Part shown: one piece after another, positions 7,743 through 27,005 of the stretch
Numbering within the stretch: the first letter of the stretch is position 1
Layout of the letters: each line of letters starts with the position of its first letter
IMG/VR virus record: IMGVR_UViG_3300049005_000030
Location: 1 to 64,000 of that record
Length of the DNA: 64,000 nt
Strand: one strand, 5' to 3'
Origin: a virus
Notes under the pieces: model-generated
Database searches by the model: none
What the model saw: the letters and a program-made list of their open reading frames with translations, nothing else
Told to the model about the DNA's origin: nothing
Program-made: the position numbers and the translations under genes

Positions 7743-8260
7743 TCGAGCCCAACGGCTGCCGGTGGTGCGGCCTCCCGAAGAGGTCGCACCACCAGCGGTG
7801 GAAACACTCGATCGGCTGGCACCTCCACGTGCAGCCCACCGACCAGCAGCGACTCCAGAGAATGCGCGACAGGCGAGCAGAGAGCGGGAAGACCATGCCG
7901 AAGAAGGGCGAGACCTTGCCGTTCAAGGTGGCGTTCACCTACCACGCCAACCCGGCCGCCGGCCGCGACAAGGCCATCAACGGCACCCTGCCGTTCCGGA
8001 CCGAGGACGAGGCCATGCGTGAGGCGACCGAGCTGGCCCGGCGCGGCGCGTTGGTCTTCGTCGACAAGCGAGTGGGCCCGGTCACGCACCACCTCGCACA
8101 GCTCTACCCCTGGACCGATGAGCAGCGCCGGCTGGCCGAGCTGGCCGACGAGGTGACGGAGTTGCAGCACTACGACGGCGGTCACCAGGTCCAGCGGATG
8201 TTCGACATCCAGAACGAGATGACCACGCTGATCGCCGGCATCGGCGTGAAGCACTTCTGA
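7739..8260 (+). CDS. hypothetical protein with CxxC/His motif
   Basis: 173 aa, PNGCRWCG...H...WH. Confidence 0.7.
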   Translation: MIEPNGCRWCGLPKRSHHQRWKHSIGWHLHVQPTDQQRLQRMRDRRAESGKTMPKKGETLPFKVAFTYHANPAAGRDKAINGTLPFRTEDEAMREATELARRGALVFVDKRVGPVTHHLAQLYPWTDEQRRLAELADEVTELQHYDGGHQVQRMFDIQNEMTTLIAGIGVKHF

Positions 8261-8271
8261 CCAGCACCAAC

Positions 8272-8309
8272 GCGACAGCCCCTACTCCATCGGAGTGAGG
8301 GGCTATCGC
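8272..8309 (+). terminator. hairpin terminator
   Basis: gcgacagcccct...aggggctatcgc. Confidence 0.55.
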
Positions 8310-8315
8310 CATGGG

Positions 8316-8345
8316 TTGACGAGCCGGTGAGTGGTCGGCTAGTCT
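8316..8345 (+). promoter_or_regulatory. repeated promoter/operator copy
   Basis: TTGACG-agccggtgagtggtcggc-TAGTCT. Confidence 0.8.
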
Positions 8346-8384
8346 TCTCCTATCAGCACGACAGAGCGAGCCCCGGAGGCCAGG

Positions 8385-8621
8385 ATGACCGCCCAGACCG
8401 CCCCCGCCCCCACCGCCAGCGACCTCGACGAGATGTTCACCCACCTGTTCTGCCCGATCTGCAACCCGGCCCCCCGGCCCGGCGACTCGGTCCCCGCCCT
8501 CTGCGGCTACGTCCGCCACTACGTCGGCCACCACCTTGAGACCATCGACGACGAGTGCCCGGTGTGCCTGGCCTTCGAGGTGGAGTTCCAGCAGACCAGC
8601 CGCTGCCCCCGCTGCTCCTGA
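8385..8621 (+). CDS. small Cys-rich (Zn-binding) protein
   Basis: CPIC, ALCG, CPVC, CPRC; GGAGG RBS. Confidence 0.7.
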   Translation: MTAQTAPAPTASDLDEMFTHLFCPICNPAPRPGDSVPALCGYVRHYVGHHLETIDDECPVCLAFEVEFQQTSRCPRCS

Positions 8622-8633
8622 CCCCCGACACGA

Positions 8634-8666
8634 CGAAGCCCCCCGGCCAGTAGCCGGGGGGCTTCG
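8634..8666. terminator. hairpin between convergent genes
   Basis: cgaagccccccgg / ccggggggcttcg. Confidence 0.75.
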
Positions 8667-8692
8667 CTGCGAACAGGACGAACAAGACCCGA

Positions 8693-9550
8693 CTACAACC
8701 CTACCAACGCCAGCGCCGGCCACAGCAGGCCCGTCACGTCGCCGAGCACCACCACGTTGGCCGCCGTCAGCAGCGGCATCACCGCCCGGCGCTCGAACGC
8801 CTTGCCCGCGTGGAAGCGCAGCGGGTACGGCAGCAGGGCCACCTCACGCCAGCGCTGCCCGCGCACCCGCAGCGGCCACCAGAACGGCAGGCCGGCCACC
8901 GTGTGCCCGTCGCCCCAGCAGTGCACGTAACAGCCCAGCGCCACCACCGCGCCCAGCCATGCTCCGACCGGCGCGGGCACGTCGCCGAGCCAGCTGGCGG
9001 TCAGTGCGGTCAGGCCGGCGGCCGTGACGCTGACGGCCACCCAGCCGTTGGAGCGCAGCCACCGGGGCAGCGCGCGGCGCGCGGCGCGGCGCAGCCGCCC
9101 GTGGGGCTTGTCGTGGCCGAACCGGGGTGCGAGGCCGCGCACGGCCAGGGACAGGAAGACGAACAGGCACGCCAGCACGGCGACGCGTCCGCCCCAGCCG
9201 CAGGCCAGCGCGACCAGGCCGCCGAGCACGAGCGGGAACGGCCAGGTGTGGGTGATCTTGCGGTGGCCGTCACGGCACTCCGGCTTGTCGTAGCGGGTGC
9301 GCGTGCGGTGGTAGGCCCAGACGCCGAGGCTGTCCAGGCCGCGCGCGGCCGCCTCGCTCACGGGCCCGAACGCCCGGGAGACGGTGGCGCCCGGGTGGTC
9401 GAGGTCGGGCAGCAGGGCGGCCCCGGCGCACAGCGCGCCGGCCACCAGCTGGACCAGGACGCTGAGGTGGACGCCGAGCAGCGCCGGCAGCAGGTGGGCG
9501 GCGGCGGCGCCGATGACGCTGCCGTGCAGCGCGTGGCCAGGTGCCATCAT
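8693..9550 (-). CDS. membrane-bound metal-dependent hydrolase (YdjM/DUF457-like)
   Basis: MMAPGH, LLPDLDHP, HRKITHT, HCWGD motifs with TM segments. Confidence 0.85.
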   Translation of the reverse strand: MMAPGHALHGSVIGAAAAHLLPALLGVHLSVLVQLVAGALCAGAALLPDLDHPGATVSRAFGPVSEAAARGLDSLGVWAYHRTRTRYDKPECRDGHRKITHTWPFPLVLGGLVALACGWGGRVAVLACLFVFLSLAVRGLAPRFGHDKPHGRLRRAARRALPRWLRSNGWVAVSVTAAGLTALTASWLGDVPAPVGAWLGAVVALGCYVHCWGDGHTVAGLPFWWPLRVRGQRWREVALLPYPLRFHAGKAFERRAVMPLLTAANVVVLGDVTGLLWPALALVGL

Positions 9551-9568
9551 GTTGATCTCTCCCGGTTG

Positions 9569-9598
9569 TTGACTAGCCGTTAGGACACCGGCTACTCT
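9569..9598 (+). promoter_or_regulatory. repeated promoter/operator copy
   Basis: TTGACT-agccgttaggacaccggc-TACTCT, then GTTCCAC. Confidence 0.8.
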
Positions 9599-9639
9599 AC
9601 AGGAGTTCCACACGCGAGAGAATCCCACCGGAGGCTGAG

Positions 9640-9879
9640 ATGTCGGACTACGTGCAGCGACTGCTGGATAAGGACAAGGCACTGCGCAAGGGTTCGGGCG
9701 AGGTGTACCTGGCGATCTTCGGTGAGTACGACGACTCCTATCCGATGGCCGCGTTCGAGGTGAAGGCGGAAGCGATCAAGTACCGCGACAAGCAGAACGA
9801 GACGATCATCGACGCGCACGACCGCGTTCGACTCGCCACGATCCCGTTCTACCCGCGCGGCACCTACACCGCCGAGTAG
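9640..9879 (+). CDS. hypothetical protein
   Basis: 79 aa, GGAGG RBS. Confidence 0.75.
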   Translation: MSDYVQRLLDKDKALRKGSGEVYLAIFGEYDDSYPMAAFEVKAEAIKYRDKQNETIIDAHDRVRLATIPFYPRGTYTAE

Positions 9880-9953
9880 ACGACAATGACCACAGCCCGC
9901 TTTCCGGTGATCATTCACCCGGGGGGCGGGCTGTCCCATGTGAGGAGAAGTGA

Positions 9954-10226
9954 ATGGGTAAAGAGATCGCCGGCATTGGGCTGGCGCTGGCCGGGTTCAT
10001 TGGCCTGGAAGTGATCGGTTTCATGTTGGCCGGATGGCCCTTCCCCGCCATCAGCGGGTGCATTGTGGCCATGGTCTGGGGCGCGTCGATCGCTACCGTC
10101 ACCGGGAACGCCGGAGCGGAGCGGAGCGGGAACGCCACCGGGAACGAGCAGGAAGGCGACGACGGCGGCATGGTCGTGCGCTTCGACCCCGACGACCCGG
10201 AGGCGTTGATCCCGGGGCGGAGCTGA
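9954..10226 (+). CDS. small two-TM membrane protein
   Basis: GAGGAG RBS; tail overlaps CGGGAACG repeats. Confidence 0.7.
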   Translation: MGKEIAGIGLALAGFIGLEVIGFMLAGWPFPAISGCIVAMVWGASIATVTGNAGAERSGNATGNEQEGDDGGMVVRFDPDDPEALIPGRS

Positions 10227-10386
10227 GCGGGAATCGGAGCGGAGCGGTTCCCGATGCAGCGGGAACGCCACCGGGAACGAGCGAGAATCGCAGGTCAGCG
10301 GAGCGGGAACGGGAAGCGGGAAGGTCGGGGACGTGAGCGGGAACGGAACGCCGGAGTGGATCATGCTTCGGGTGGTCGCGGGAACG
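10103..10386 (+). repeat. cluster of CGGGAACG 8-mers with interspersed GCGGAGC
   Basis: perfect copies at 10103, 10127, 10139, 10260, 10272, 10304, 10338, 10379. Confidence 0.9.
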
Positions 10387-10572
10387 GAGTCCGGAGCGGT
10401 GACCGATCACGTCGACGGACGCCTGATCGATCCGGAGGACTGCCCACGGCTGCTGTTCGACCCCAAGTCGGGGTGCGTCATGAACGGCTGGGGGTTAGCC
10501 GAGCGCACCGAGCAGATGGTGGAGGTCAAAGGCCGGCCGGCGCGGGTCTGGACGGTCCGACGAGCCACCTGA
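10333..10572 (+). CDS. small hypothetical protein
   Basis: 79-aa ORF followed by a terminator; start uncertain. Confidence 0.45.
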   Translation: MSGNGTPEWIMLRVVAGTESGAVTDHVDGRLIDPEDCPRLLFDPKSGCVMNGWGLAERTEQMVEVKGRPARVWTVRRAT

Positions 10573-10586
10573 CCCCCTGAGACGAC

Positions 10587-10625
10587 CACGGCGCCCGTCC
10601 CTCCGATCGAGGGGCGGGCGCCGTG
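10587..10625. terminator. hairpin terminator
   Basis: cacggcgcccgtccct / aggggcgggcgccgtg. Confidence 0.7.
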
Positions 10626-10646
10626 TCCTGTTCACTGTCCGTTGCT

Positions 10647-10790
10647 GTGGACGGTCGGACCGTCCACTGGACGGTACGAAGGGGGCTGGGGGAAGTATTT
10701 ACGGGTAGAAGGCCCTTTCGGACCGTCCGTGGACGGTTGGTGGACGGTGGCGGTGGACGGTTGGTGGACGGTCCGACCGTCCACCGTCCA
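10647..10790. repeat. TGGACGGT 8-mer array, candidate clt (cis-acting locus of transfer)
   Basis: 9 perfect copies in both orientations directly downstream of the traB-like stop, with two mutually inverted 21-bp palindromes. Confidence 0.85.
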
Positions 10791-10791
10791 C

Positions 10792-12795
10792 TCACTCAGT
10801 GTTACCGTTGACCGCAGCGAGTCGCGGCCCGCACCACGCCCAGCGCCCGTGCTCACCCGTGCGCTTCACCTTCTTGTCCGCCTCCCAGACGGCCATCAGG
10901 TTGTAGAACCAGCTCGACTTGCGCCCGGCCGCCCGGTACAGCTCGACCGCCTTCACCCCCTGGCCGTCGGCTTCCATCAGCAGCCGCCGGACGATCTTCT
11001 CCGCGTCCTCATCGGAGCGGGAATCCCCCTCCGCCTCCGCGATGGCCTCCGCCCGGACCCGGTCGGACTCCTCCCGCTGCTCCGGGGTCATCGCTTCCCG
11101 CCGCCGCGCGATCACCTCCGCCAGGTCCACGTCCGGATCGTTCTCGCCCCACACCGTGACGTTCTCGCTCACGTCGCCCTCATCGCCTGCCACCTGGTCC
11201 TCCGCTCCGTTGGCGTTCCCGTTCCCGTTCCCGGTGGCGTTCCCGCTCGGTTCCCGCTCCGGCTCCGCCTGGTCGACGGGAACCCAGCGAACCCGCTCCG
11301 CCCACAGCGGACACACGGCGGAAAAACTCTCCTCCATTTGCGGCAACATTTTCGCCGTCTGCCCGCACCGTTCCTCGGCCACCGCGTCCCGCGTCGCATC
11401 GCTGATCCAGAAAATGCGGATCGGGGCTCGGTCTACCACCGCACCATCCTTCGCGTAGCACGTGCCCTGGCGGTTCGGGTCGATCAGATGGGCGCGCACC
11501 CCCGGCGTGCCACCAAAAACGTAGCTCTCGCCTTCGTCGTCCTCCATACGGAAACAGAACTTGTGCCGGATCTGCTGCCGAATCTGCGAAGAGCCAATCG
11601 CCTCCAACGTCGGGTATTGGGTGGCCAAAACGAATCGGACACCCAGACCGCCGCCCTTGTTGGCGATTTCCGCGAACCAGTGCACGATCAGGCCGTCGCC
11701 GGAACCCAGTAGCGTCTTGGCTTCATCGACGACGATTTGGGTGATCGGACCGTGCTTGCTGGTGTCCCACACCCGGTCACCGGTCGAGGCCATCAGCGCC
11801 GCGTTCTGGTCGAGCAGGCCGCCCGGCTCGGCGATCGCGCGCAGCACTTCCTTGGCCTCTGCGACCGTGGACACCACCAGCTCCATGCACTTGCGCCACG
11901 GGCCCAGCTCCACGCCGCCCTTGAAGTCGAAGCCGATCTGTTGCACGTCATCGGTGCAGGCGTCGCTGGCCACGATCAGGTTGATGAGCCCCGACTTGCC
12001 GCTGCGGGTGGCGCCGCCGATCAGCAGGTGGCGGACCCCGTCGCCCTTGACGTAGCGCTGGATGGTGCGCAGCTGGCCGTCGGCGCGCGGGCCCAGCACC
12101 AGCGGGTCGGTGGCCTTGCCCACGTGCGTGGGCAGCGGCCAGTTCTGGGCGGCCGCGTGCGGGTCGCGCTCGATCACCCGGAACCGGACGCTGCTGGTGG
12201 ACTTGCCGTCCTGCTCCATCTGCAACGTGCCCATGTCGGCGCCCAGCACGCTCTCCACCCGAGCGATGTTGGTCTTGCTCAGCACGTCGTCGACCTGATA
12301 GGTGCCCGGTGCCCAGGTGAATTTCCCGCTGTAGCCGGTCACGTCCATGGTCACCTCGACCGGGCGGGCGCGGTCGAAGTTGATCCGTTGCGCCACCGTG
12401 GGCCAGTCCTGCAACGTGGCCTCCATGCGCACCTGCTGACGCTTCACGTGGCTGGTCCACCACGGGATGCCGCCCACGAGGATGCCGGCGCCCAGGGACA
12501 ACCACGTCCACTGCGGCGACATCCACCCTTCGTAGGCGCACATCACCCACGAGGTGGACGCGCCCAGCACGCTGTAGGCGTACATCCGGCGCATGGGGTC
12601 GCCGATGCGGCTGCGGATCCAGGCGTAGCCAGCGAGCGCGCCCGCGCCGAGGCCGACCCCGCTCTGGACGAGGTCGGTCCCGGCCCAGTGCATCGTCCCG
12701 TCCAGCGCTGCGACACCAGCCCCCACATAGAAGGGGCCGAGCGCCAGGCGCTTGCGGCGCAGCACTTCCCAGAGGTTGATGTCGTCGTCACGCAT
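10792..12795 (-). CDS. traB: FtsK/SpoIIIE-family conjugative DNA translocase, TraB-like
   Basis: N-terminal TMs, Walker A GGATRSGKS, DFKGG, Walker B IVVDE, LATQ, C-terminal wHTH (VKAVELYRAAGRKSSWFY...GRW). Confidence 0.85.
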   Translation of the reverse strand: MRDDDINLWEVLRRKRLALGPFYVGAGVAALDGTMHWAGTDLVQSGVGLGAGALAGYAWIRSRIGDPMRRMYAYSVLGASTSWVMCAYEGWMSPQWTWLSLGAGILVGGIPWWTSHVKRQQVRMEATLQDWPTVAQRINFDRARPVEVTMDVTGYSGKFTWAPGTYQVDDVLSKTNIARVESVLGADMGTLQMEQDGKSTSSVRFRVIERDPHAAAQNWPLPTHVGKATDPLVLGPRADGQLRTIQRYVKGDGVRHLLIGGATRSGKSGLINLIVASDACTDDVQQIGFDFKGGVELGPWRKCMELVVSTVAEAKEVLRAIAEPGGLLDQNAALMASTGDRVWDTSKHGPITQIVVDEAKTLLGSGDGLIVHWFAEIANKGGGLGVRFVLATQYPTLEAIGSSQIRQQIRHKFCFRMEDDEGESYVFGGTPGVRAHLIDPNRQGTCYAKDGAVVDRAPIRIFWISDATRDAVAEERCGQTAKMLPQMEESFSAVCPLWAERVRWVPVDQAEPEREPSGNATGNGNGNANGAEDQVAGDEGDVSENVTVWGENDPDVDLAEVIARRREAMTPEQREESDRVRAEAIAEAEGDSRSDEDAEKIVRRLLMEADGQGVKAVELYRAAGRKSSWFYNLMAVWEADKKVKRTGEHGRWAWCGPRLAAVNGNTE
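11214..11256 (-). repeat. CGGGAACG repeats inside the traB linker
   Basis: CGTTCCCG at 11214, 11220, 11226, 11238. Confidence 0.85.
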
Positions 12796-12812
12796 GGTCG
12801 TTCGCGCCTTTC

Positions 12813-13802
12813 TCAGCTGGTCAGGGTCTGGTCGTCGACTACCGCGCCGGCCTTGCGGGCCTGGGCGGCCTTGATCTCGGCGGCCATGTTCTCCTTCACC
12901 GTCGCGATGAAGTTGGCGAAGTAGGCGCCGGTTTCGGTCAGCGAGTCGCTGGCCCGGGTCAGGTTCTGGATGTCGCCGGGGTCGAATCCGGCCTGGACCA
13001 GTCGCAGCTTGTAGGCGCGGACGTGTTCGGACGCCTGGGCCAGGGCCTTCTCCAGGCCGAGCGCGTCGGCCTCGATCTGGCTCAGCCTCAGTCGGCCGGT
13101 CCCGCTGGCCGCGTACTCGGCGAATCCCCGTGCGACGAGGTTGGCCGCCGTGCTGTCTCCTGCCACTGCCTTGGCTCCGATCTTGTCCATGTGCGCCCGG
13201 TTGGCGGCGACGATCTTTTCGGCCCGGCGGTCCTCCGGGGTCTTGGCGGTGCTGCGGTGCCGCCCGCTCGGCTTGCCCTTGACCGGCTTGACGATGACCT
13301 TGCCGTTGGTCTTCTTGGTGGTGCCCAGGTGGAGCGCGGGCTGCTCCGCCTTTTTCTTGTAGATCATCTTTTCGTTGGCGTGAGCCAGGATGAAGTGCTG
13401 ATTGAGCAGCTCGGCGGACTCGAACATGGTCGAGCAGCTAAAACAGGTGAAGCTGCGCCGGCCGAACCTGCGCTTGTGGATCTTGGTCGGGTCCGGGACG
13501 ATCTTGCCGCCCAGCGTCCGCTCCGGGTGGTCTTCGTCGTAGACGATCTCGTGCCCACGCCGGGCGGCTACCTCGCGATCCACCGCGTTGCGCGTCTTGC
13601 GATAGGTGCGCTTGACCTGCCCGGGGGCGGTGAACACCGCGTAGTGCGCTGTGGCCTTCGCGGTGCCCACCGCCACCCGCACCAGCAGGTGGCGGTTGCG
13701 GGCCGGCTTCTTGCGCAGCCAGCCCCGCATCCGACGGCCGACCTTCACGCCGGGCGCCTCTTCCAGCCCGTCGCCCTTGGTGGTTTTGACTACACGTCCC
13801 AT
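12813..13802 (-). CDS. basic protein with C2H2-type zinc finger, in the TraA position
   Basis: FTCFSCSTMFESAELLNQHFILAH; helical C-terminus; directly upstream of traB. Confidence 0.7.
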   Translation of the reverse strand: MGRVVKTTKGDGLEEAPGVKVGRRMRGWLRKKPARNRHLLVRVAVGTAKATAHYAVFTAPGQVKRTYRKTRNAVDREVAARRGHEIVYDEDHPERTLGGKIVPDPTKIHKRRFGRRSFTCFSCSTMFESAELLNQHFILAHANEKMIYKKKAEQPALHLGTTKKTNGKVIVKPVKGKPSGRHRSTAKTPEDRRAEKIVAANRAHMDKIGAKAVAGDSTAANLVARGFAEYAASGTGRLRLSQIEADALGLEKALAQASEHVRAYKLRLVQAGFDPGDIQNLTRASDSLTETGAYFANFIATVKENMAAEIKAAQARKAGAVVDDQTLTS

Positions 13803-13808
13803 GTCTCC

Positions 13809-14630
13809 TTACTCCTGCCCGGTCGCGTCGGCCTCTGCTGCCAGCGCCGCCTTGAAGTCGCGGACGATCTGCCGCCCGCGCCCGGTGTCCTTGGTGGCGC
13901 CGAAGTAGGGCACGGCGACCAGTCGGTGCAGATCCGCACCGGTCACGTCCGCGCTGACGTGGCGCAGGTAGGCGGCCATGGCGTCACCGATGGTCGCGTC
14001 GGCCGGCATCCAGTCGGGGCGTCCGTCGGCGATCGGCGGCTTGGGCTCGGCGGCCGGCTTCGGCTTGGCGGTCGGCGCGGTCAGCACGACCGGGCGGGCG
14101 GCGACCCGGGTCTGCTCGCGGTCGGCGCGCTCGCGCAGGCGACGCACGAACCGGAACAGCAGCTCGACCAACGCGGCCATAGCCAGGGGCGGCCAGCCGG
14201 CGATGATCCACGCGGCCTTCTGGTCGATCCAGTCGTGGCCGATGTTGGCGAACACGGTCATACCCATGCCGCCCAGCGCGATCAGGTAGGCCAGCGGATC
14301 GGTCTTCTTGGTGCGGCTGTCCGCGTAGATGATCATGGACGCGGCCAGGATCGCGCCGTCCACGCTGATCGGGAACAGCGCCGCACGCCAGTCCGGCTCG
14401 TGGTTCTTGGTGGCCCAGTCCTGCATGTGCGAGTAGGAAATGGCCGCCGCGATGCCGACCACGGTCAACGTGGCGAGCAGGGCGACGCCGATCACCAGCC
14501 GCAGCTCCCAGCGACGCACATGGCCGCCGGCCGGTGACGTCGGACGCCTGAGCCGGAACCCGCGAAGCTTCGACAGCACGCGGCGGGTTGCCCCAGGCGC
14601 GTCGTGAGCACTACGACGCGCGAACTTCAT
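13809..14630 (-). CDS. DUF2637 / Spd-like membrane protein
   Basis: ISYSHM, LFPISVDG, ANIGH, IAGWPPLA, four TMs, C-terminal HTH-like segment; GAAAGGAG RBS. Confidence 0.8.
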   Translation of the reverse strand: MKFARRSAHDAPGATRRVLSKLRGFRLRRPTSPAGGHVRRWELRLVIGVALLATLTVVGIAAAISYSHMQDWATKNHEPDWRAALFPISVDGAILAASMIIYADSRTKKTDPLAYLIALGGMGMTVFANIGHDWIDQKAAWIIAGWPPLAMAALVELLFRFVRRLRERADREQTRVAARPVVLTAPTAKPKPAAEPKPPIADGRPDWMPADATIGDAMAAYLRHVSADVTGADLHRLVAVPYFGATKDTGRGRQIVRDFKAALAAEADATGQE

Positions 14631-14929
14631 GATCCGGTCGTCTCCTTTCGGCGGGCCGATCGCCTGCGCCATGTGCTGGCCGGCACCTGTGTGCAGTTGG
14701 CCAGGACATTCCACGACGTCCCGTTGTCTCTGTTGATCTTCAGTACCGCGTCGCGCACCCCGGTCAGCGTGCTGACCATCCGGTCCAGCGTCCGCAGGTC
14801 GCCCAGCGGATCGGAACCGAGCGCGACGGCGGAACCGAGGGCATCGACCCGGTCAGCGACAGCGCGCACTTGGGCGCTGAAGTCGAGGGGTTCGGTGTCC
14901 ACGTAGTCGCTCCGTTCTGGGTTGCGCAT
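14627..14929 (-). CDS. small HTH regulator heading the tra operon
   Basis: RDNGTSWNVLANCTQVPASTWRRR; ATGA overlap with next gene. Confidence 0.6.
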   Translation of the reverse strand: MRNPERSDYVDTEPLDFSAQVRAVADRVDALGSAVALGSDPLGDLRTLDRMVSTLTGVRDAVLKINRDNGTSWNVLANCTQVPASTWRRRSARRKETTGS

Positions 14930-15096
14930 TTACACATACCCTACCCCGGTATAGATGCCGCCGTCCAACCGGATACACAACCCCACCCGAGCAGGCGACA
15001 CCCCCGTCACCGCGCGTCACCCGACCGCGTGGCGGGGCCGGCGGGAACCCGCGCGCGGCTACCCTCACCGCAGGTGATCGTGGAAAGGGGTGGCCG

Positions 15097-16719
15097 GTGG
15101 CGGTGACGTTCGCGCCGAACCTGCGCCGGAAGGTGGTGGCCACCACCCCCGCTCGGGAAACCAAAGGTCTGGCCGACCGGGTCAAGACGTTTTTCCGTCA
15201 GTACGTCATCCCCGGCCAGCCCTACTTCGTCCCGTGGAACACCGACCGCGCCGTCCGCGAGGGCTTCGAGACCAACCCGTGGATCTACCGCGCCGTGCAC
15301 GTGATCGCGTCCAAGTCGCTGGACCTGCCGATCGTGCTGCGCCAGAACGACGGCGACAAGGGCGATCCGCTGGCGCCGGAGCTGGACCCGACCCGGCTGC
15401 TGTACCTGCTCAACGTGGAGGCCAACCCCTGGGAGCGGGCCAAGATCTTCCGCTACCGCCTGATCGCCCAGTTCCTGCTGTCCAGCAGGGGCGTGTTCAT
15501 CGAGGTGGTGCGCACCCGCGCCGGCCGCATCGGGCTGCTGAGCCTGCTGGACCCGGACAAGGTCGAGATCATCCCGACCAAGGAAATCCTGCCCGACGGC
15601 ACCGAGAAGATCGACCCTATCGGCACGTTCCGGATCACCCTGCAAGGCGGGGAACGCACGTTCGACTACCTACCCCGCTTCGACCCCAAGGGCAGTTACG
15701 ACAGCCAGGCCAGCAGCGTGTTGTGGGTGCGCTCACCGCACCCCACCCTGATGTTCCAGGGCATGACGCCTACCCAGGCCGCCGCCATGAGCGCCGACAT
15801 GGACCGCGCCGCCCGGCTCTACAACCGCCGTTTCATGGACTCCGACGGCCGGCCGGGCACGGTGATCGCCGTCAAGGGTACCGCCACCCGCGACACTCTG
15901 GACGTGGTCGAGAGCCGGATAGCCGGCAAGGCCCGGATCGACGGCCCTGGGGGTGTCGTCGCCATCCAGGCCGATGGGCTCAGCATTGCCGACACCTCCG
16001 GCAACCCTCGGGACACCCAGTGGGCCGAGACGATGGACCGGATGCGCAAAGAGGTCAGTATGACCTTCGGCGTCCCAGAGTCGATCTTGGGCGACGCGTC
16101 CGGACGCACCTTCGACAACGCCGACGCCGAAAAAGAGAACTTCTGGGAGGACACCGAGTCCCCCCTGCTGGCCATCCTGGACGACCAGCTGGACGTGCTC
16201 ACCGGCGGCTATGACGACTCCCTGTTCCTGCGCCACGACAAGTCCGGCGTGTGGGTGCTCGGCCGGCACCGGCGCATGGAGCTGGACCGCGCCTCGGCCG
16301 AGGTCGACACCGGCAAGCGCACCATCAACGAGTACCGCGCGCTGGCCGGCCTGGACGAGTACGAGAGCCCGCTGGCCCGCGTGCTGCTCATCCCCGGCGG
16401 CAAGATCATCGGCGCACTCAACGCCGAGGACGAGGCGGCCGCCGCCAAGGCCCCGATCCTGGGCAACCGGCTGCCTGCGGGCAACGTCGAAGCGCAGCAG
16501 GCCGCAGCCTTGAGCGGCCAGGCCGGCGCGGCCATCGGCTCGCTGGCCGGGGTGAACGCGGCCAACAACATCAACAACGCCAACAGCCTGCGCGCCCTGC
16601 CGCCCGGCGACCGCCAACCCACGGCGCTGGCCGGCAAGGACGGCGAGCCCCCGGACTTGGAGGGTAAGCAGGGCGGCGCGCGAGACCGAGGCGGGCGCAC
16701 CGCCACTGTCTGGCGATGA
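15097..16719 (+). CDS. portal protein (HK97-like)
   Basis: NPWIYRAVHVIA, YNRRFMDSDGRPG, VSMTFGVPESILGDASGRTFDNA, TINEYR. Confidence 0.9.
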   Translation: MAVTFAPNLRRKVVATTPARETKGLADRVKTFFRQYVIPGQPYFVPWNTDRAVREGFETNPWIYRAVHVIASKSLDLPIVLRQNDGDKGDPLAPELDPTRLLYLLNVEANPWERAKIFRYRLIAQFLLSSRGVFIEVVRTRAGRIGLLSLLDPDKVEIIPTKEILPDGTEKIDPIGTFRITLQGGERTFDYLPRFDPKGSYDSQASSVLWVRSPHPTLMFQGMTPTQAAAMSADMDRAARLYNRRFMDSDGRPGTVIAVKGTATRDTLDVVESRIAGKARIDGPGGVVAIQADGLSIADTSGNPRDTQWAETMDRMRKEVSMTFGVPESILGDASGRTFDNADAEKENFWEDTESPLLAILDDQLDVLTGGYDDSLFLRHDKSGVWVLGRHRRMELDRASAEVDTGKRTINEYRALAGLDEYESPLARVLLIPGGKIIGALNAEDEAAAAKAPILGNRLPAGNVEAQQAAALSGQAGAAIGSLAGVNAANNINNANSLRALPPGDRQPTALAGKDGEPPDLEGKQGGARDRGGRTATVWR

Positions 16720-19922: not shown

Positions 19923-22900
19923 GTGACCGCACCCCCGATCCCCGCCCTGGAATACAAGACCCTCAGTGCCACCCTGGCCGCGCCGACCGCGCTCAACCCC
20001 AGTGACACCGGGGACGCCGTGGTGGTCGGCTACGACGACGCCAAGGGCACCGTCGACGCCGTAGTGGCCGTCACCGGCACTCGCGACGAGGTGGGCGACA
20101 TCGTCACCCCCGGCGCGTTCAAGTCGAGCATCGCTAGCCGCCACCCCAAGATGTGCCTGGGCCACGACTGGAACCGACCCATCGGCTGGCCCATCGACTA
20201 CAAGGAACTGCTGCCCGGAGACCCCGGCCTGCCGGCCGAGACCGCCGACGGCAAGCCGTGGCCTGCCGAGGCCGGCGGCCTGTGGACGCGCAACCAGTAC
20301 ATGCTCGACACCCAGGACGGCCGCGACGCCTACGCGCACGCGAAGTTCTACGGCAACAAGACGGCCTACTCCATCGGCTACGTCGTCACCAAGTCCCGCA
20401 AGGCCCTGGTCGACGGCCTGCCCACCCGGATCATCGACGAACTCGACCTGTACGAGTACGGCCCGGTGCTGCACGGAGCGCACCCGCTGGCCACCCAGCA
20501 GTCGGTGAAGACCGCCGCGCCGCAGGGTATCGAGAACAAGGTGCGGCTGGTTCACGACGCCCACTACTGGGGTCTGCCGATGGGCACCCCGATCCACCCC
20601 GGCATGAAGCCGCGCGGCGCGAAGGCGCAGAAGCTGGAACGGGCCGGGCACGCCGTGTCCGAGACCGAGGGCGCGGTGGACATCCCCAATGACAAGCTGC
20701 GGATCAAGCCGACCGCGCGGGGCAAGTCGAAGTTCAAGCCGGACGGCGCGCTACAGGCCCAGCTCTACGGCGAGATCATGTCGAAGATCGACGAGGGCGA
20801 GGCTCCCGAGGACTTCTCGGTCGACGACCCGAACGGCCTGAACAAGAAGGAAGGCGAGTACAACCCGCTGGACCTGATGGTGGCCAACGGCGTCACCCCG
20901 GCCGAGATGGAGAACACCCTCCGCAACGCCAACTGGGACGACAGCCGGGTGGGCGACTCGGCCGACAACCAGGACCAGATCAACACTTTCGTTGACGACG
21001 TGGTGGGCGTCTACCGCGAGAAGTACAACGCCGCCCTGGTCCAGCAGAACGGCAACAAGGACACCGCCACCGTCGCCGACCCCGCCGACACCGGCACAGA
21101 CTCGGCCGGTGTCGAAGGCCCCACCCCGGACGTGCCTGACACCACCGCGCCCGGAGACGCCAATGCCGGCGACACCACCGCGCCGGCCGCGCCCGAAGCG
21201 ACCGCGCCGGACCACCCGCAGGCAGCGCCGGGGTCGACTCCCCCGGCCGCGCCGGCAGCCGCGCCGGGGCAGCCGGACGCGCCCGGCATGTCCACCACGA
21301 AGCTGACCACGCTGCCCAAGCACGAGGCGGCGGCCGCCGCCGGCTCCATGTCCGACCAGGAACTGGCCGCGCACGACACCGAGATGGCCTCGCGTGCCAC
21401 CCAGCTCGGCCGCGACGGCCAGGTCAGCCCCAACCATCAGACCGTCAAGGACGAGGTCGCCCGGCGTGCGGGCAACCCGCCGCAGGCCCCGGCGGCCGGG
21501 CCCGCCGCCCCGGCCGCGAACGCGCCGGCTCCGACGACGGCCAAGCCGCCGCGCAAGCTGGCCGCCAAGCCGGCCGCCGCGATCGGCGCGGCCAAGCCCG
21601 GCAGCGTCACCCAGCACCCGACCGGCCCCGACGGCAAGCCCGACACCACCGCCGAGCCCGTGGCCAAGCAGGGCCTGGTCACCGACAAGGTGCCGCCGAA
21701 GATGGCCGACGGCCTGGCCAAGGCTGGCCTGGCCGAGCACACCGCCGAGCCCGGCAAGATGGTGCTGACCCCGCAGGGCGAGCAGCACCACCATGCCATC
21801 AACGGCACCACGCCGCCCGCGCCGAACGGCGCGCCAGGGGAACAGGCCCCTACCGCGCCGACGATGTCCACGAACAAACTGGCCTCGCTGAACAAGCAGG
21901 ACGTGGCCACAGCGGTGGGCGCGATGTCCGACCACGAGCTGGCCGGACACGACCAGGAGTTGGCCAGCCGCGCCTCCCAGCTCGGCAAGCCAGGTCAGGT
22001 CACCCCCAACCACCAAGCGGTCAAGGACGAGATCGCCCAGCGTCCCGCACCGGCCCCCGGCGGGATCCCCCCGACCGCCGCCGTGGGAGCGCCGGGGATG
22101 GCTCCGGCCGTCCCCGGCGCATCGGCCGTCCCTGGCGAGCCTGCGCACGCCAATGCCGTGGCCGCCGAGACGTTGCGCACCCTGCCGCGCGACGCCTCCG
22201 GCCGCGTCGACCTGGTCAACGCGCCCACCTCGCTGGTTCAGACCATGCGACAGGCCGGCATCGACGACAGCGGCGGCGCGGAACAAGATGAACAGTCGTT
22301 TACCCGCGCGCTGGACGCGCTGGACCAGCAGTACGGCCAGGACCCGGCCATGGCGCACGCGCTGACCACCGCACGCGGCTTCGTCACTGGCGAGCAGCCC
22401 GGCGCCCGCGTCATCCAGAAGCAGGCCGCCGCCGACGCCAAGCAGCTCCAGACCGATGAGACCCCGGTGGGCGACCGGGCCGACGCCGCGCGCGTGCTGG
22501 CCTCCGCCCTGAACAAGTCCGGCATGGCTTACATGTCCGACCCGTCCGGCAACGTCCGCGACAGCCGCCCCATCCCGAACGCCCTGTCGAAGTACGCCCA
22601 GGCCCTGGTCAGCTATCACGGCGCGCTGCCGCCCGCGAAGGTCGCCAAGCCCTCCGGCGCGCCCGACTACACCCCGACCGGCGACGCCAGCCGCCTCGGC
22701 GAGCTGACCGACAGCCAGTTGGCCGCCGAGGTTGGCCACGCGCAGGGCAAGCTGGACGAGATCACCAAGGCCGACCCCCGCCGCGAGTCCGGCCAGCACG
22801 CTGACGCCAAGCTGAAGCTGGACGCCTTCCAGGGTGAGCACAGCCGACGGCAGCAGGCCGGGGAGACGCGCCCGGACGAGACCGCTCCCGACGCAAGCGG

Positions 22901-25900
22901 AGGCACTCCTCCGAATCCGGAGGCCGTTTCGGCGACGTCCACACAGGACGGACAACCGGCCGCCGTTCCCAACGCTGCCAACGAAACCGGCATCCCCGGC
23001 ACACCCGCCGCACCGCCGGCCACCCCGCACTCCGACACTGTTCCGACCCCACAGGAAGCCGCCCAGATCACCGCCGACGAACAGGGCGACGTCCAGGACA
23101 TCGGCGACTCCGCTCAAGGCGTGGTCGAGTCCGACGACGGCGAGTTCGAGGTGGAACCCGACATCGCCGAACGCCAGGACCGCATCGCCACCCTGCTCGG
23201 CCAGTCCGATAGCGGCAACCTCGACCTGGGCAGCCAGAACGACGACCAGTTGCGCTCAACCCGAGGCGACATCGTCGGCGAGATCCAGTTGCAGCGGTAC
23301 CTGGACAACCGCAACCGCCAGCGCGCCAACCCGCAGCCCACCACACCGGAACCGCCGCACGCCCCGGAGGGCGCCGCACCGGCCCAGGGAACCGTCGACG
23401 GCCACACCCCCGGCACCCAGGCGACGCCCGGCGCGCCGGTGCCGGCCGTTCCGGCCGAATCGGGGCCGCCGCCGCAGCGCCCTGGCGTCGCGGGCGCGGC
23501 CGAGGACTTCGCCGACGCCCTGGAATCCGGCGACAGCGAGAAGATCGACGCCGCGCGGGCCCGGCTGGCGTCCAGCCTGCGCCGGTCCAAGACAGACGCC
23601 GCCTCGGTCGGCGCGATGCGCGAGCTGGCCTCCGGCGAAGGCGACCCGAGTGCGGAGGACCTGCGAGCCGGCGCCCAGACGGTGCGCACGGAGGTGCGCG
23701 AGCGGCGCAACACCCAGGCTCGCAGCCGCCGCACCGCGCGCCGCTTCGAGCGCGACCACCTGCGCAACCTGCTGCACCAGGTCGAAGGCGAGATGGACCG
23801 CCGCAACATGCGGTACGACCCGGTGGCGCCGGAGTCCGGCGACGGCGCGGCCGCCTCCGGGACGTGGCGGACCGAGCTGCGCAAGCATTCCTGGTCCAAT
23901 CTCGGCTTCCAGGAAGACCATCTGAGCGGGGCCAACTTCACCGCCATGGTCTCCACCCCGGTCGACGCCAAAAACAACCCCACCGCTGGCGCGAACTACA
24001 CCTGGAAGACCATCGACAACGATGGCAACACCATCACCCAGGGCAATGGCACCGTCGACAACGCCACCGGCGCCCGCGACGCCATCGTCACCGCGCTCAA
24101 GGCGCAGCAGGCCCTGGGCAACCTGCCCGCCGACGCCGGGGTGCCCGAACCCAGCACTCCCCAGACCAGCTCGGCGCGCACCCATGCCGACGTGGCCGCC
24201 GCCGTCAGCCAGATGCAGGAGCGGCTGAGCACGGCCGAACGCGCCGTCAACCCCATCACGGGGGCCCGCGATCCGCTGGGCAAGCGCCCGACGCTGACCC
24301 CGCCCGCGCGACCCGCGTTCACCAGCCCCGACCAGGTGCGCCAACACCTGGCGACCCTGGCCGCCGACGGGTCGCAGACCCGCCAGCTCATCGCCCGGCG
24401 AGCCGTGAACGTGCAGTGGGACAACGTGCAGCTCACCCCCGGCGGCGGCCTCATGGTCGTCACCGTGGCCGGCGAGAAGGACCCGCAGCTGTGGCACACC
24501 GGCAGTGGCCGCTCGGCCATGTCGCTGATCTACCGGGGTTCCGGCGGCGCCTCCCGCCTGTCCGCGCCGGATCTGCTGCGCGCCGGCACGCTCATGGAGT
24601 CGCTGCCCGACGACAACGGGCACACCGTCGACTTCTCCAGGTCCGACGACAACAGCGTGATGACCAGCACGAGCGACTACACCGTGGGCGACCGCAGCGG
24701 CGTCGACGCGTTCGCTCGCAACGTCATGAGCGCGCTGGTCGCCGAGAAGATCAAGAACGGCCAGTGGGGCAGCCCCGTGGTCAGGGGCATGTCCTCCGAC
24801 GTCGCTCCGTTCTCGCCGGGCAGCAACCACACCCGCGCCGGCTACGTGCAACAGAACCGCGACGCCCTGACCACAATGCTGTCCAACTCCCTGACCGGCC
24901 GCCGCGTCAAGCCCACCGGCGAGGACGCGGACACCCTCAACGTCGCCACCGCCGCCCAGACCCTGACCAACCTGGGCGCGCCCGACGCGGCCGCCGTGCT
25001 GCTGCGCCGCCGCGCCGCCGAGGTGCGCGCCACCTTCGGCGGTGAGGCCGACGCGCACGGTGCGAGCACCCTGGACAACCTGGCCGCCGGCCACCTGTCC
25101 ACCTACTCACCTGTCCTGTCCCCCGGCGAGCGGCTGCTCAGCATCACCCAGGGGGAACGCGTCACCGTGGCCGACCCCGACGGCAACGCCCGTAGCTACC
25201 GGGTGCTGTCGCCGCCGCGCACCGGCACGTTCCCCGCCTATCGCACCGCCACCGTCATGGACGAGTCGACCGGCGAGACCGGCGTGCTCACCGTCGCCAA
25301 CAATGCCGCCGAGCAGCCGCAGATGACCATCAGTCCCAGCGCGGACCTGCCGGCCATGGTGCGCATCGACCTGCACTCGCCCACCTTTACCGTGACCGGC
25401 GCGGACGAACCGGCCCCCGCCAACGCCGACGAGGTGCGCGCGAACGCCATGGCCGAGGTGGACGCCATCCCGCATGAGGTGCTGGACGCGGCCGCCGCCG
25501 CCCTGCCCTCCACCAACACCGAGACCGCCGCGCGTCGGGCTCTGCCGGCCGACCAGCGGCCGCCCCGGCGCACCAGCCCGCGCGCGGTCCCCAAGACCGC
25601 GCCGGAGGCCAAGCCGGGCACCCCGGTCGCTGGCGAGCAGCACCTGGCGGCCACCCAGGCCAGCACGCTCAGCTCGTGGGTGGGCGCCGAGCACACGCTG
25701 TCCGACTCGGCCCCTGCCGGTGGATTTGACTCGCTGGCCTCATGGCGGGAGTGGGCCAGGGAGGCCGCCAGCGACCCGAACACGCCGCCGAAGGTGCAGC
25801 AGGGGCTGACCAATGCGTTGCTCAACGACGACTACCTGGAAGCGAACGGGGCACGTCTGTCACCGGGTGGTCACATGATCGTGTTCGGAAAGAACGGACA

Positions 25901-27005
25901 CGTGGTCTACGCCCGCGCTGGCATGACCGTGTTCCCGGCCGGCGTCGGCGCGGCATCCGCCATCGGCGTGGACAAGATCCCGCCCGACACCGGTATGGCC
26001 ATCGCCGACGGGATCGAGCGCAGCTCGTGGAACGGGCAGACCATCCGCTGGGGCGATGGGTACACAGCCGCCACCTCCGACATCAAGAAGGTTATGGAAA
26101 ACCTGCCGCGCGCCAGCGACAAGGTGGGGTACCGGGATCCGATGCTGTCCCCGGCCAAGCTGGCGTTCGCCGGCCAGGTGGCCGACGCCAAGACGCCCCG
26201 CGTGGGCGACATCGAGGCGCTGGAAGCACTGGCCAGCGGATCGGCCTCGCCGAACATGGCGAGCCCGGACGCCATCGGCGGCCTGCATCTACAGGACCGG
26301 GAGAACGCCTACCGGCAGATGGCCGGTGTGCGCGCCCGGGTGTTCTACTCCACCCCGGTCAAGCGGAACGAGCCCGCCGACACCAAGGCAGGCCAGAACC
26401 TGGCGAAGCGGGTGGCCACGGAAATGCGGATCGCCCAGTCGCTCTCGCAGGTCGCTCCGCTGGACGCCTCGCGCCGGCTGAACCGGGTGGCCGACGAGAT
26501 CGACGGCCAGAAGATCACTGAGGCCAACGGCGGTTCCGAGCACAACCCGGCCGCCGAGATGCGGGCGGCGGCCCGCGCGATCGCCGATGCCTACGACGAG
26601 AACAAGGTGACGCCGTTCGGGAAGCTTCGCCGCGCCGGAAATGTCGGTCTGGTCATGCCACGCTCGGCTCCGAAGGTGACGGCCGTTGGCGCGGGTACCT
26701 ACAGCCGTGACGACCGGGCCAAGGCGCTGGGCGAGATGCTGGCCCAGGGGGTCCAGTTCACGCGCGGCGAGGACGGGGCGACCATCGCCCGGTTCGGCGA
26801 CCAGGCTGTGACGACCTCGAACACGCCGGGGCAGTTCACCACCGCGTACGCGGGCGGCAACGGCAAGCCGGTGCAGGGCGGCATCGGGCTCCAGCCGGAC
26901 GGCAGTATCACGATGCGCTGGCAGGACCGGCTCACCCGCACCACGGTTCAGGCCACGATTCCGGCGGGCGGCTGGGATTTCCAGGACTCCACAGCCGAGG
27001 AATAA
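19923..27005 (+). CDS. HK97-type prohead protease fused to about 2150 aa of unknown cargo
   Basis: DEVGDIVTPGAF, LGHDWNRPIG (His), YSIGY (Ser), ELDLYEYGPV; lies before the capsid gene. Confidence 0.85.
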   Translation: MTAPPIPALEYKTLSATLAAPTALNPSDTGDAVVVGYDDAKGTVDAVVAVTGTRDEVGDIVTPGAFKSSIASRHPKMCLGHDWNRPIGWPIDYKELLPGDPGLPAETADGKPWPAEAGGLWTRNQYMLDTQDGRDAYAHAKFYGNKTAYSIGYVVTKSRKALVDGLPTRIIDELDLYEYGPVLHGAHPLATQQSVKTAAPQGIENKVRLVHDAHYWGLPMGTPIHPGMKPRGAKAQKLERAGHAVSETEGAVDIPNDKLRIKPTARGKSKFKPDGALQAQLYGEIMSKIDEGEAPEDFSVDDPNGLNKKEGEYNPLDLMVANGVTPAEMENTLRNANWDDSRVGDSADNQDQINTFVDDVVGVYREKYNAALVQQNGNKDTATVADPADTGTDSAGVEGPTPDVPDTTAPGDANAGDTTAPAAPEATAPDHPQAAPGSTPPAAPAAAPGQPDAPGMSTTKLTTLPKHEAAAAAGSMSDQELAAHDTEMASRATQLGRDGQVSPNHQTVKDEVARRAGNPPQAPAAGPAAPAANAPAPTTAKPPRKLAAKPAAAIGAAKPGSVTQHPTGPDGKPDTTAEPVAKQGLVTDKVPPKMADGLAKAGLAEHTAEPGKMVLTPQGEQHHHAINGTTPPAPNGAPGEQAPTAPTMSTNKLASLNKQDVATAVGAMSDHELAGHDQELASRASQLGKPGQVTPNHQAVKDEIAQRPAPAPGGIPPTAAVGAPGMAPAVPGASAVPGEPAHANAVAAETLRTLPRDASGRVDLVNAPTSLVQTMRQAGIDDSGGAEQDEQSFTRALDALDQQYGQDPAMAHALTTARGFVTGEQPGARVIQKQAAADAKQLQTDETPVGDRADAARVLASALNKSGMAYMSDPSGNVRDSRPIPNALSKYAQALVSYHGALPPAKVAKPSGAPDYTPTGDASRLGELTDSQLAAEVGHAQGKLDEITKADPRRESGQHADAKLKLDAFQGEHSRRQQAGETRPDETAPDASGGTPPNPEAVSATSTQDGQPAAVPNAANETGIPGTPAAPPATPHSDTVPTPQEAAQITADEQGDVQDIGDSAQGVVESDDGEFEVEPDIAERQDRIATLLGQSDSGNLDLGSQNDDQLRSTRGDIVGEIQLQRYLDNRNRQRANPQPTTPEPPHAPEGAAPAQGTVDGHTPGTQATPGAPVPAVPAESGPPPQRPGVAGAAEDFADALESGDSEKIDAARARLASSLRRSKTDAASVGAMRELASGEGDPSAEDLRAGAQTVRTEVRERRNTQARSRRTARRFERDHLRNLLHQVEGEMDRRNMRYDPVAPESGDGAAASGTWRTELRKHSWSNLGFQEDHLSGANFTAMVSTPVDAKNNPTAGANYTWKTIDNDGNTITQGNGTVDNATGARDAIVTALKAQQALGNLPADAGVPEPSTPQTSSARTHADVAAAVSQMQERLSTAERAVNPITGARDPLGKRPTLTPPARPAFTSPDQVRQHLATLAADGSQTRQLIARRAVNVQWDNVQLTPGGGLMVVTVAGEKDPQLWHTGSGRSAMSLIYRGSGGASRLSAPDLLRAGTLMESLPDDNGHTVDFSRSDDNSVMTSTSDYTVGDRSGVDAFARNVMSALVAEKIKNGQWGSPVVRGMSSDVAPFSPGSNHTRAGYVQQNRDALTTMLSNSLTGRRVKPTGEDADTLNVATAAQTLTNLGAPDAAAVLLRRRAAEVRATFGGEADAHGASTLDNLAAGHLSTYSPVLSPGERLLSITQGERVTVADPDGNARSYRVLSPPRTGTFPAYRTATVMDESTGETGVLTVANNAAEQPQMTISPSADLPAMVRIDLHSPTFTVTGADEPAPANADEVRANAMAEVDAIPHEVLDAAAAALPSTNTETAARRALPADQRPPRRTSPRAVPKTAPEAKPGTPVAGEQHLAATQASTLSSWVGAEHTLSDSAPAGGFDSLASWREWAREAASDPNTPPKVQQGLTNALLNDDYLEANGARLSPGGHMIVFGKNGHVVYARAGMTVFPAGVGAASAIGVDKIPPDTGMAIADGIERSSWNGQTIRWGDGYTAATSDIKKVMENLPRASDKVGYRDPMLSPAKLAFAGQVADAKTPRVGDIEALEALASGSASPNMASPDAIGGLHLQDRENAYRQMAGVRARVFYSTPVKRNEPADTKAGQNLAKRVATEMRIAQSLSQVAPLDASRRLNRVADEIDGQKITEANGGSEHNPAAEMRAAARAIADAYDENKVTPFGKLRRAGNVGLVMPRSAPKVTAVGAGTYSRDDRAKALGEMLAQGVQFTRGEDGATIARFGDQAVTTSNTPGQFTTAYAGGNGKPVQGGIGLQPDGSITMRWQDRLTRTTVQATIPAGGWDFQDSTAEE

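Follow-up and report, generated by a model that had tools for sequence, protein, structure and literature searches.

Eleven copies of one 8-bp word, TGGACGGT, ten of them exact and one with a single mismatch, lie in and beside a 144-bp array directly after the gene for a conjugation-type, TraB-like DNA translocase in the 101,153-bp genome of a tailed phage of filamentous soil bacteria. We read this array as a clt-like docking site for the phage's own TraB-like protein, with a probability of about 0.6; the binding of the protein to the array, and any DNA transfer, are inferred from sequence and predicted structure alone. This reading hints that the phage family can move its DNA between host compartments without virus particles. 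The window analysed here comprises the first 64,000 bp of IMG/VR record IMGVR_UViG_3300049005_000030, a single contig rated 100% complete, whose ends overlap by exactly 127 bp, a length equal to an assembler k-mer, so that the assembly is circular or circularly permuted.

The array was first described in an earlier note, and each of the coordinates given there is correct. Exact copies of TGGACGGT lie on the + strand at 10549, 10648, 10668, 10730, 10741, 10754 and 10765 and on the - strand at 10659, 10776 and 10783. The window holds 12 copies against 3.2 +/- 1.8 in shuffled sequences, with 0 of 100 shuffles reaching 12. A count across the whole genome gives 18 copies, 10 of them here, and this is the most clustered 8-mer of the genome. 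When one mismatch is allowed a further site appears at 10722 (-), and the 300-bp bin then holds 11 sites, against at most 4 anywhere else in the genome or in shuffles. Two one-mismatch copies at 14960 (-) and 15091 (+), in the divergent intergenic region 14930-15096 between the first gene of the operon and the portal gene, are not above chance. A second region of clustered short G+C-rich words, for example CTCGGCCA with 6 copies within 200 bp, is present at 32600-33100, probably inside a repetitive structural gene.

The sites fall into two clusters. The distal cluster (10647-10675) contains the sites at 10648 (+), 10659 (-) and 10668 (+), and the cluster next to the traB stop (10722-10790) contains seven sites, at 10722 (-, one mismatch), 10730, 10741, 10754 and 10765 (+) and 10776 and 10783 (-), of which the four on the + strand are spaced 11, 13 and 11 bp apart, about one helical turn. 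Each cluster includes a 21-bp palindrome (10647-10667 and 10764-10784), and these two segments are also exact reverse complements of each other. As the earlier note had also stated, the spacer between the clusters (10676-10721) is poorer in G+C, at 59% against 69-70% in the clusters, with its poorest stretch (10692-10712) at 43%. The array ends at 10790, one base from the stop codon of the FtsK-like gene (10792-10794, - strand). The outlying exact copy at 10549-10556 (+) lies inside a small + strand ORF (10333-10572), and between the convergent genes there is a G+C-rich hairpin (10587-10625) with 17-nt arms, 94% complementary, a 5-nt loop and no T-run, a possible two-way terminator that a simple terminator scan does not call. 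The observation in the earlier note thus holds in full, although it did not include a conserved core inside the spacer or the flanking heptamer arrays described below, which the same reader noted separately.

The replicon is a tailed phage. It encodes a portal, a MuF-like protein, a 2360-aa protein (19923-27005, +) whose only family hit is a prohead serine protease domain near the N-terminus and which is unusually large for a head-module gene, an HK97-type capsid protein, a lysin, tail-fibre-like proteins and a large terminase (89912-91411), together with a primase-polymerase, an exonuclease, UvrD-type and SNF2-type helicases and a PD-(D/E)XK nuclease. Searches of the complete record with the Pfam models Phage_integrase, Resolvase, ParB_N and AAA_31 (ParA-type) found nothing, while the control genomes gave matches, and the genome therefore has its own replication genes and no recognisable integration or partition genes.

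The gene next to the array (10792-12795, -) encodes a 667-aa protein that matches Pfam PF01580 (FtsK_SpoIIIE; E 2e-8) and has invariant G-K-S at 266-268 and D-E at 357-358, the Walker A and B motifs. Its best named family is plasmid TraB (NCBIfam NF041214, E 1.7e-26), to which residues 24-661 align end to end with profile positions 17-638 of 639, but the score is 92.9 bits against a cut-off of 800, and we therefore call the protein TraB-like rather than a member of that family. An AF2 model (mean pLDDT 78) predicts four helices within residues 20-129, a motor at about 250-500, a disordered linker at 511-557 and a C-terminal winged helix with helices at 595-612, 616-623 and 627-639 (alpha3, the predicted recognition helix) plus a two-strand wing. 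The best Foldseek hits are the FtsK motor structures 2IUS and 6T8O (E 1e-16), with TcpA also matched; the C-terminal domain modelled on its own has pLDDT above 90 over the fold, and its top hits are winged helices, with FtsK gamma (2J5P) ranking 9th. Hydropathy of the N-terminal helices is modest, with a maximum of 1.2 over 19 residues, so that membrane anchoring is inferred. The predicted architecture is that of Streptomyces TraB, although the sequence relationship is remote. Megablast of 8000-16000 against plasmid and phage collections found no match, and tblastn of the protein matched cultured phage and plasmid proteins only over the ATPase domain, at 29% identity or less. PADLOC gave only a weak ATPase hit for this protein and nothing for its neighbours, and a defence-system role was therefore rejected.

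Three genes lie upstream of traB in the same operon. The 329-aa protein (12813-13802, -) has a single C2H2-type zinc finger followed by a basic G-R-H-R stretch, has no family hit in Pfam, PHROGs, NCBIfam or PADLOC, is syntenic in all close relatives, and keeps the finger in 9 of 10 lineages. The next (13809-14714, -) encodes a DUF2637 membrane protein (PF10935, E 2e-19) with hydrophobic segments and a C-terminal HTH-like domain of about 55 aa. The first gene of the operon (14627-14929, -) encodes a 100-aa protein with no family hit that is syntenic in five of the six closest lineages, with no match in lineage L009 (lineages related to the window are referred to by such numbers), and is transcribed divergently from the portal gene (15097-16719). 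The TraB-like protein has about 100 homologues in metagenomes, many on contigs of 95-130 kb, of which two carry Actinophytocola and Saccharothrix MAG names and several are IMG/VR records. In the closer relatives the order small protein, DUF2637 protein, 329-aa protein, traB and array is conserved, back to back with the portal and MuF genes and with portal identities of 48-64%. The module is therefore an old, inherited part of this phage family and not a chimeric assembly.

In all 12 lineages inspected (TraB 25-50% identical to that of the window) DNA beginning within about 90 bp of the traB stop holds a short word repeated in two clusters around a central segment. In nine of them (TraB 34-50% identical) the centre is a nearly invariant core of roughly 26 bp, with the consensus ACCTGTAR, four to six variable bases, and then CTCCCCCAGCCCCCTC; in the window it lies at 10681-10706 (-) and has C in place of the first T. 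A head-to-head palindrome of the word is centred 22-25 bp before the core in eight of the nine, the half-sites being spaced differently in L002, and in the four lineages measured a palindromic pair is centred about 24-25 bp after it. A G+C-rich hairpin follows the array in most of the nine. The more distant lineages L011, L013 and L014 keep a recognisably related centre, whereas L012 has a different one. A scan of the collection with 14 bases of the core gave mostly chance hits and a gapped pattern was needed; the core occurs once per phage genome and was not found in 300 other genomes of the family of the Actinophytocola MAG.

The repeated word has switched among these lineages. It is GTCCA-type in eight, with variable flanking bases that the window has homogenised to TGGACGGT, GTCCGG in L002 and L010, CCAGAACC in L011 and a GTCTCA-type word in L012. 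On a maximum-likelihood TraB tree L002 and L010 are sisters (100/100), L011 is the close sister of the GTCCA-type L013 (100/100, short branches) and L012 is a long branch, giving at least three separate switches. Every GTCCA-type lineage has Ser before the conserved Trp at the start of predicted helix alpha3, L002, L010 and L011 have Thr, and L012 has an unrelated helix; between L013 and L011 the differences are concentrated in the first half of alpha3. L006 shares the first half of alpha3 and the 8-mer with L005, L007 and L009 but has a different heptamer, so that alpha3 tracks the 8-mer and not the heptamer. This is the pattern expected if alpha3 reads the word, as shown experimentally for pSVH1 TraB (cited in PMC3583192), but it is suggestive rather than proof, as it rests on three switches and every gene of an element diverges along the same tree.

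A second set of repeats flanks the array. The heptamer CGGGAAC is present five times at 11207-11256 (-), in the sense strand of the region of traB that encodes the predicted disordered linker, and again at 10103-10386 (+), with eight copies on the + strand and one on the - strand, overlapping the tail of ORF 9954-10226 and the sequence before and into ORF 10333-10572, such that the two arrays point at the 8-mer locus from both sides. A perfect 22-bp inverted repeat joins them (10258-10279 and 11226-11247) and encodes the same seven residues in traB and in a + strand frame (about 10205-10572) that has no start codon before 10333; inversion between the arms would keep both frames open, but no invertase is encoded and this may be no more than concerted evolution of the two arrays. 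The same arrangement recurs with the words CCGGGAC, CGGGAC and CGAGAC in other lineages and with CGGGGAA in the genome of L012, where the downstream copies mostly share the orientation of those in the linker instead of opposing it. Spacing is often 11-12 bp and is not always a multiple of three. The HTH-like C-terminal domain of the DUF2637 protein differs between lineages with different heptamers and is about 80% identical between the window and L009, which share the word, against 50% for the whole protein, although one lineage (G005) does not fit a simple code between this domain and the heptamer. Neither these arrays nor the invariant core is explained by the present analysis.

The array is closest in position, size and repeat type to the clt loci of Streptomyces conjugative plasmids, which lie at or in the 3' end of the tra gene, span about 50-175 bp, hold several 5-9-bp direct repeats plus inverted repeats, and are bound by the Tra protein through helix alpha3 of its winged helix (PMC3583192, PMC4447253). 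The clt of pWTY27 reaches 16 bp into traA and extends 159 bp beyond it, with four 7-bp direct repeats and two inverted repeats, is footprinted at two separate regions by TraA, a TM-plus-FtsK-type protein, and is needed in cis for transfer (PMC3583192); that of pJV1 has nine 9-bp direct repeats and two pairs of inverted repeats, and that of pIJ101 is about 54 bp with an inverted repeat and three 5-bp direct repeats. The pSVH1 locus has repeated 8-bp motifs; a literal search for the pSVH1 word was uninformative. Compared with pWTY27, the array here has 10-11 copies of an 8-mer in both orientations, two perfect 21-bp palindromes and a core conserved in most of the family, and it lies in a 101-kb phage rather than a 14-kb plasmid. 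Compared with pSVH1, pJV1 and pIJ101, the protein is a remote relative, and no conserved core is described for those loci or for that of pWTY27. The Streptomyces plasmid-phages pZL12 and pFP4 are virion-encoding replicons that also carry a Tra-type conjugal transfer locus, but they are plasmids with rep loci, whereas the present family has its own primase-polymerase and helicases and no par or int genes; as far as we could ascertain no clt has been defined for them. In FtsK gamma with KOPS, and SpoIIIE with SRS, a winged helix at the end of an FtsK motor reads an 8-bp word and thereby loads or orients the pump, but KOPS are spread over the chromosome with polarity, whereas here the word is concentrated at one locus, with 8 copies elsewhere, about what chance gives. 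The FtsK-like gene of the 129-kb Streptomyces phage Gilgamesh (gene 10) has no comparable array after it. Two circular Streptomyces 'plasmids' of about 130 kb (CP108533.1 and NZ_CP107821.1), typed non-mobilizable and annotated almost only as hypothetical proteins in the roughly 10-kb stretches viewed, each carry a gene like it and may be phage genomes kept as episomes.

In the model that we favour, several winged-helix domains of a membrane-anchored TraB hexamer would bind the 8-mers, which lie about one helical turn apart and form palindromes roughly 24 bp to either side of the core; the ring would assemble on or next to the core, and the FtsK-type motor would then pump the double-stranded phage genome through a membrane or septum. 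What the analysis establishes is that the array is real and unique in the genome, that it is strictly linked to the 3' end of the traB-like gene across a deep phage family, the domain architecture of the protein as predicted, and the co-change of the word with the predicted recognition helix. The binding itself, any requirement for the array in transfer, the role of the core, and the biological purpose, whether spread between hyphal compartments or cells or loading into spores, are inferred only. The clt interpretation proposed in the earlier note is thus partly supported, and it is the best supported of the options raised there, which also included a partition centromere, an iteron origin and a packaging site. 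Weighing against it are the remoteness of the protein from TraB, the conservation of the core across lineages with different 8-mers, which points to a second, unidentified reader, and the overall character of the genome, which looks like that of a lytic-type phage without plasmid maintenance genes, so that a need for conjugation-like transfer is not obvious.

The least unlikely alternative is that the site belongs to another protein of the module and serves as an anchoring or regulatory site, the candidates being the 329-aa zinc-finger protein, the 100-aa first gene product and the variable HTH-like tail of the DUF2637 protein. All three genes are syntenic with the array in the closer relatives, and the invariant core needs some conserved reader. 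However, the array lies next to traB and not these genes, no tblastn match to the three proteins was found beside traB in L011-L014 although the array is still there, the DUF2637 tail differs between L006 and L005, L007 and L009, which share the same 8-mer, and L004 lacks the zinc finger but keeps both array and core.

A packaging site of the P1 or SPP1 pac type, with clusters of short words bound by the small terminase around a conserved core where the first cut is made, is improbable but not excluded. Two clusters of short repeats around a conserved centre resemble P1 pac, the site is present once per genome, it lies 4.3 kb from the portal gene, and there is no other dense non-coding repeat cluster in the genome. 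However, the large terminase and the gene before it lie about 20 kb away around the circle, whereas pac and cos sites usually lie in or beside the terminase genes, and this reading explains neither the adjacency to the traB stop nor the co-change with the TraB helix. An iteron-type replication origin is more doubtful still. Symmetric repeats do flank a 21-bp stretch of 43% G+C, but the primase-polymerase, the exonuclease and all three helicases lie at 54-70 kb, some 45 kb away, no initiator gene is adjacent, the cumulative GC skew of the window has no extremum near 10.7 kb, and the conserved part of the core is its C-rich run and not the A+T-rich part. RNA and promoter readings were not supported, as no Rfam match reaches gathering score, there is no sigma-70-type promoter, and RNAalifold over nine lineages finds no conserved long-range structure around the core; the window's own strand does fold strongly as single-stranded DNA (z -9.7), but that follows from the inverted repeats. 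A partition centromere, or an attP with arm-type sites around a core, is suggested by the symmetric layout but is largely refuted by the absence of matches to integrase, resolvase, ParA and ParB models in the complete record and, for attP, of the core in the 300 host-family genomes searched.

More speculatively, and on present evidence more likely wrong than right, a large family of uncultured phages of about 95-120 kb that infect filamentous actinomycetes may use the TraB-like pump with this array-core-array locus to move the double-stranded genome across hyphal cross-walls, into neighbouring hyphae or into spores, a spread without virions by a phage with no integrase or plasmid maintenance genes. 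The invariant core would then be a new cis element, the point where the ring assembles or where the DNA is opened for threading, and the lineage-specific heptamer arrays would be read by the DUF2637 membrane protein to hold the DNA at the pore.

Virion-encoding replicons with Tra genes are already known, and what is new here is the invariant core, the symmetric geometry, the documented word switches and the flanking heptamer arrays. Conjugation in Streptomyces is the only known system in which one FtsK-like protein moves double-stranded DNA between cells, and how it loads on a circular molecule remains an open question. A deep family of phages appears to have kept the pump, its accessory membrane proteins and a precisely organised putative docking locus for a long time, providing many natural variants of one site, with the same core and switched words, that make the recognition code and the loading geometry directly testable. 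If the module acts on the phage genome, phages of mycelial bacteria would have a second, particle-free route of spread, which would change how infection, plaque formation and persistence in mycelia are understood.
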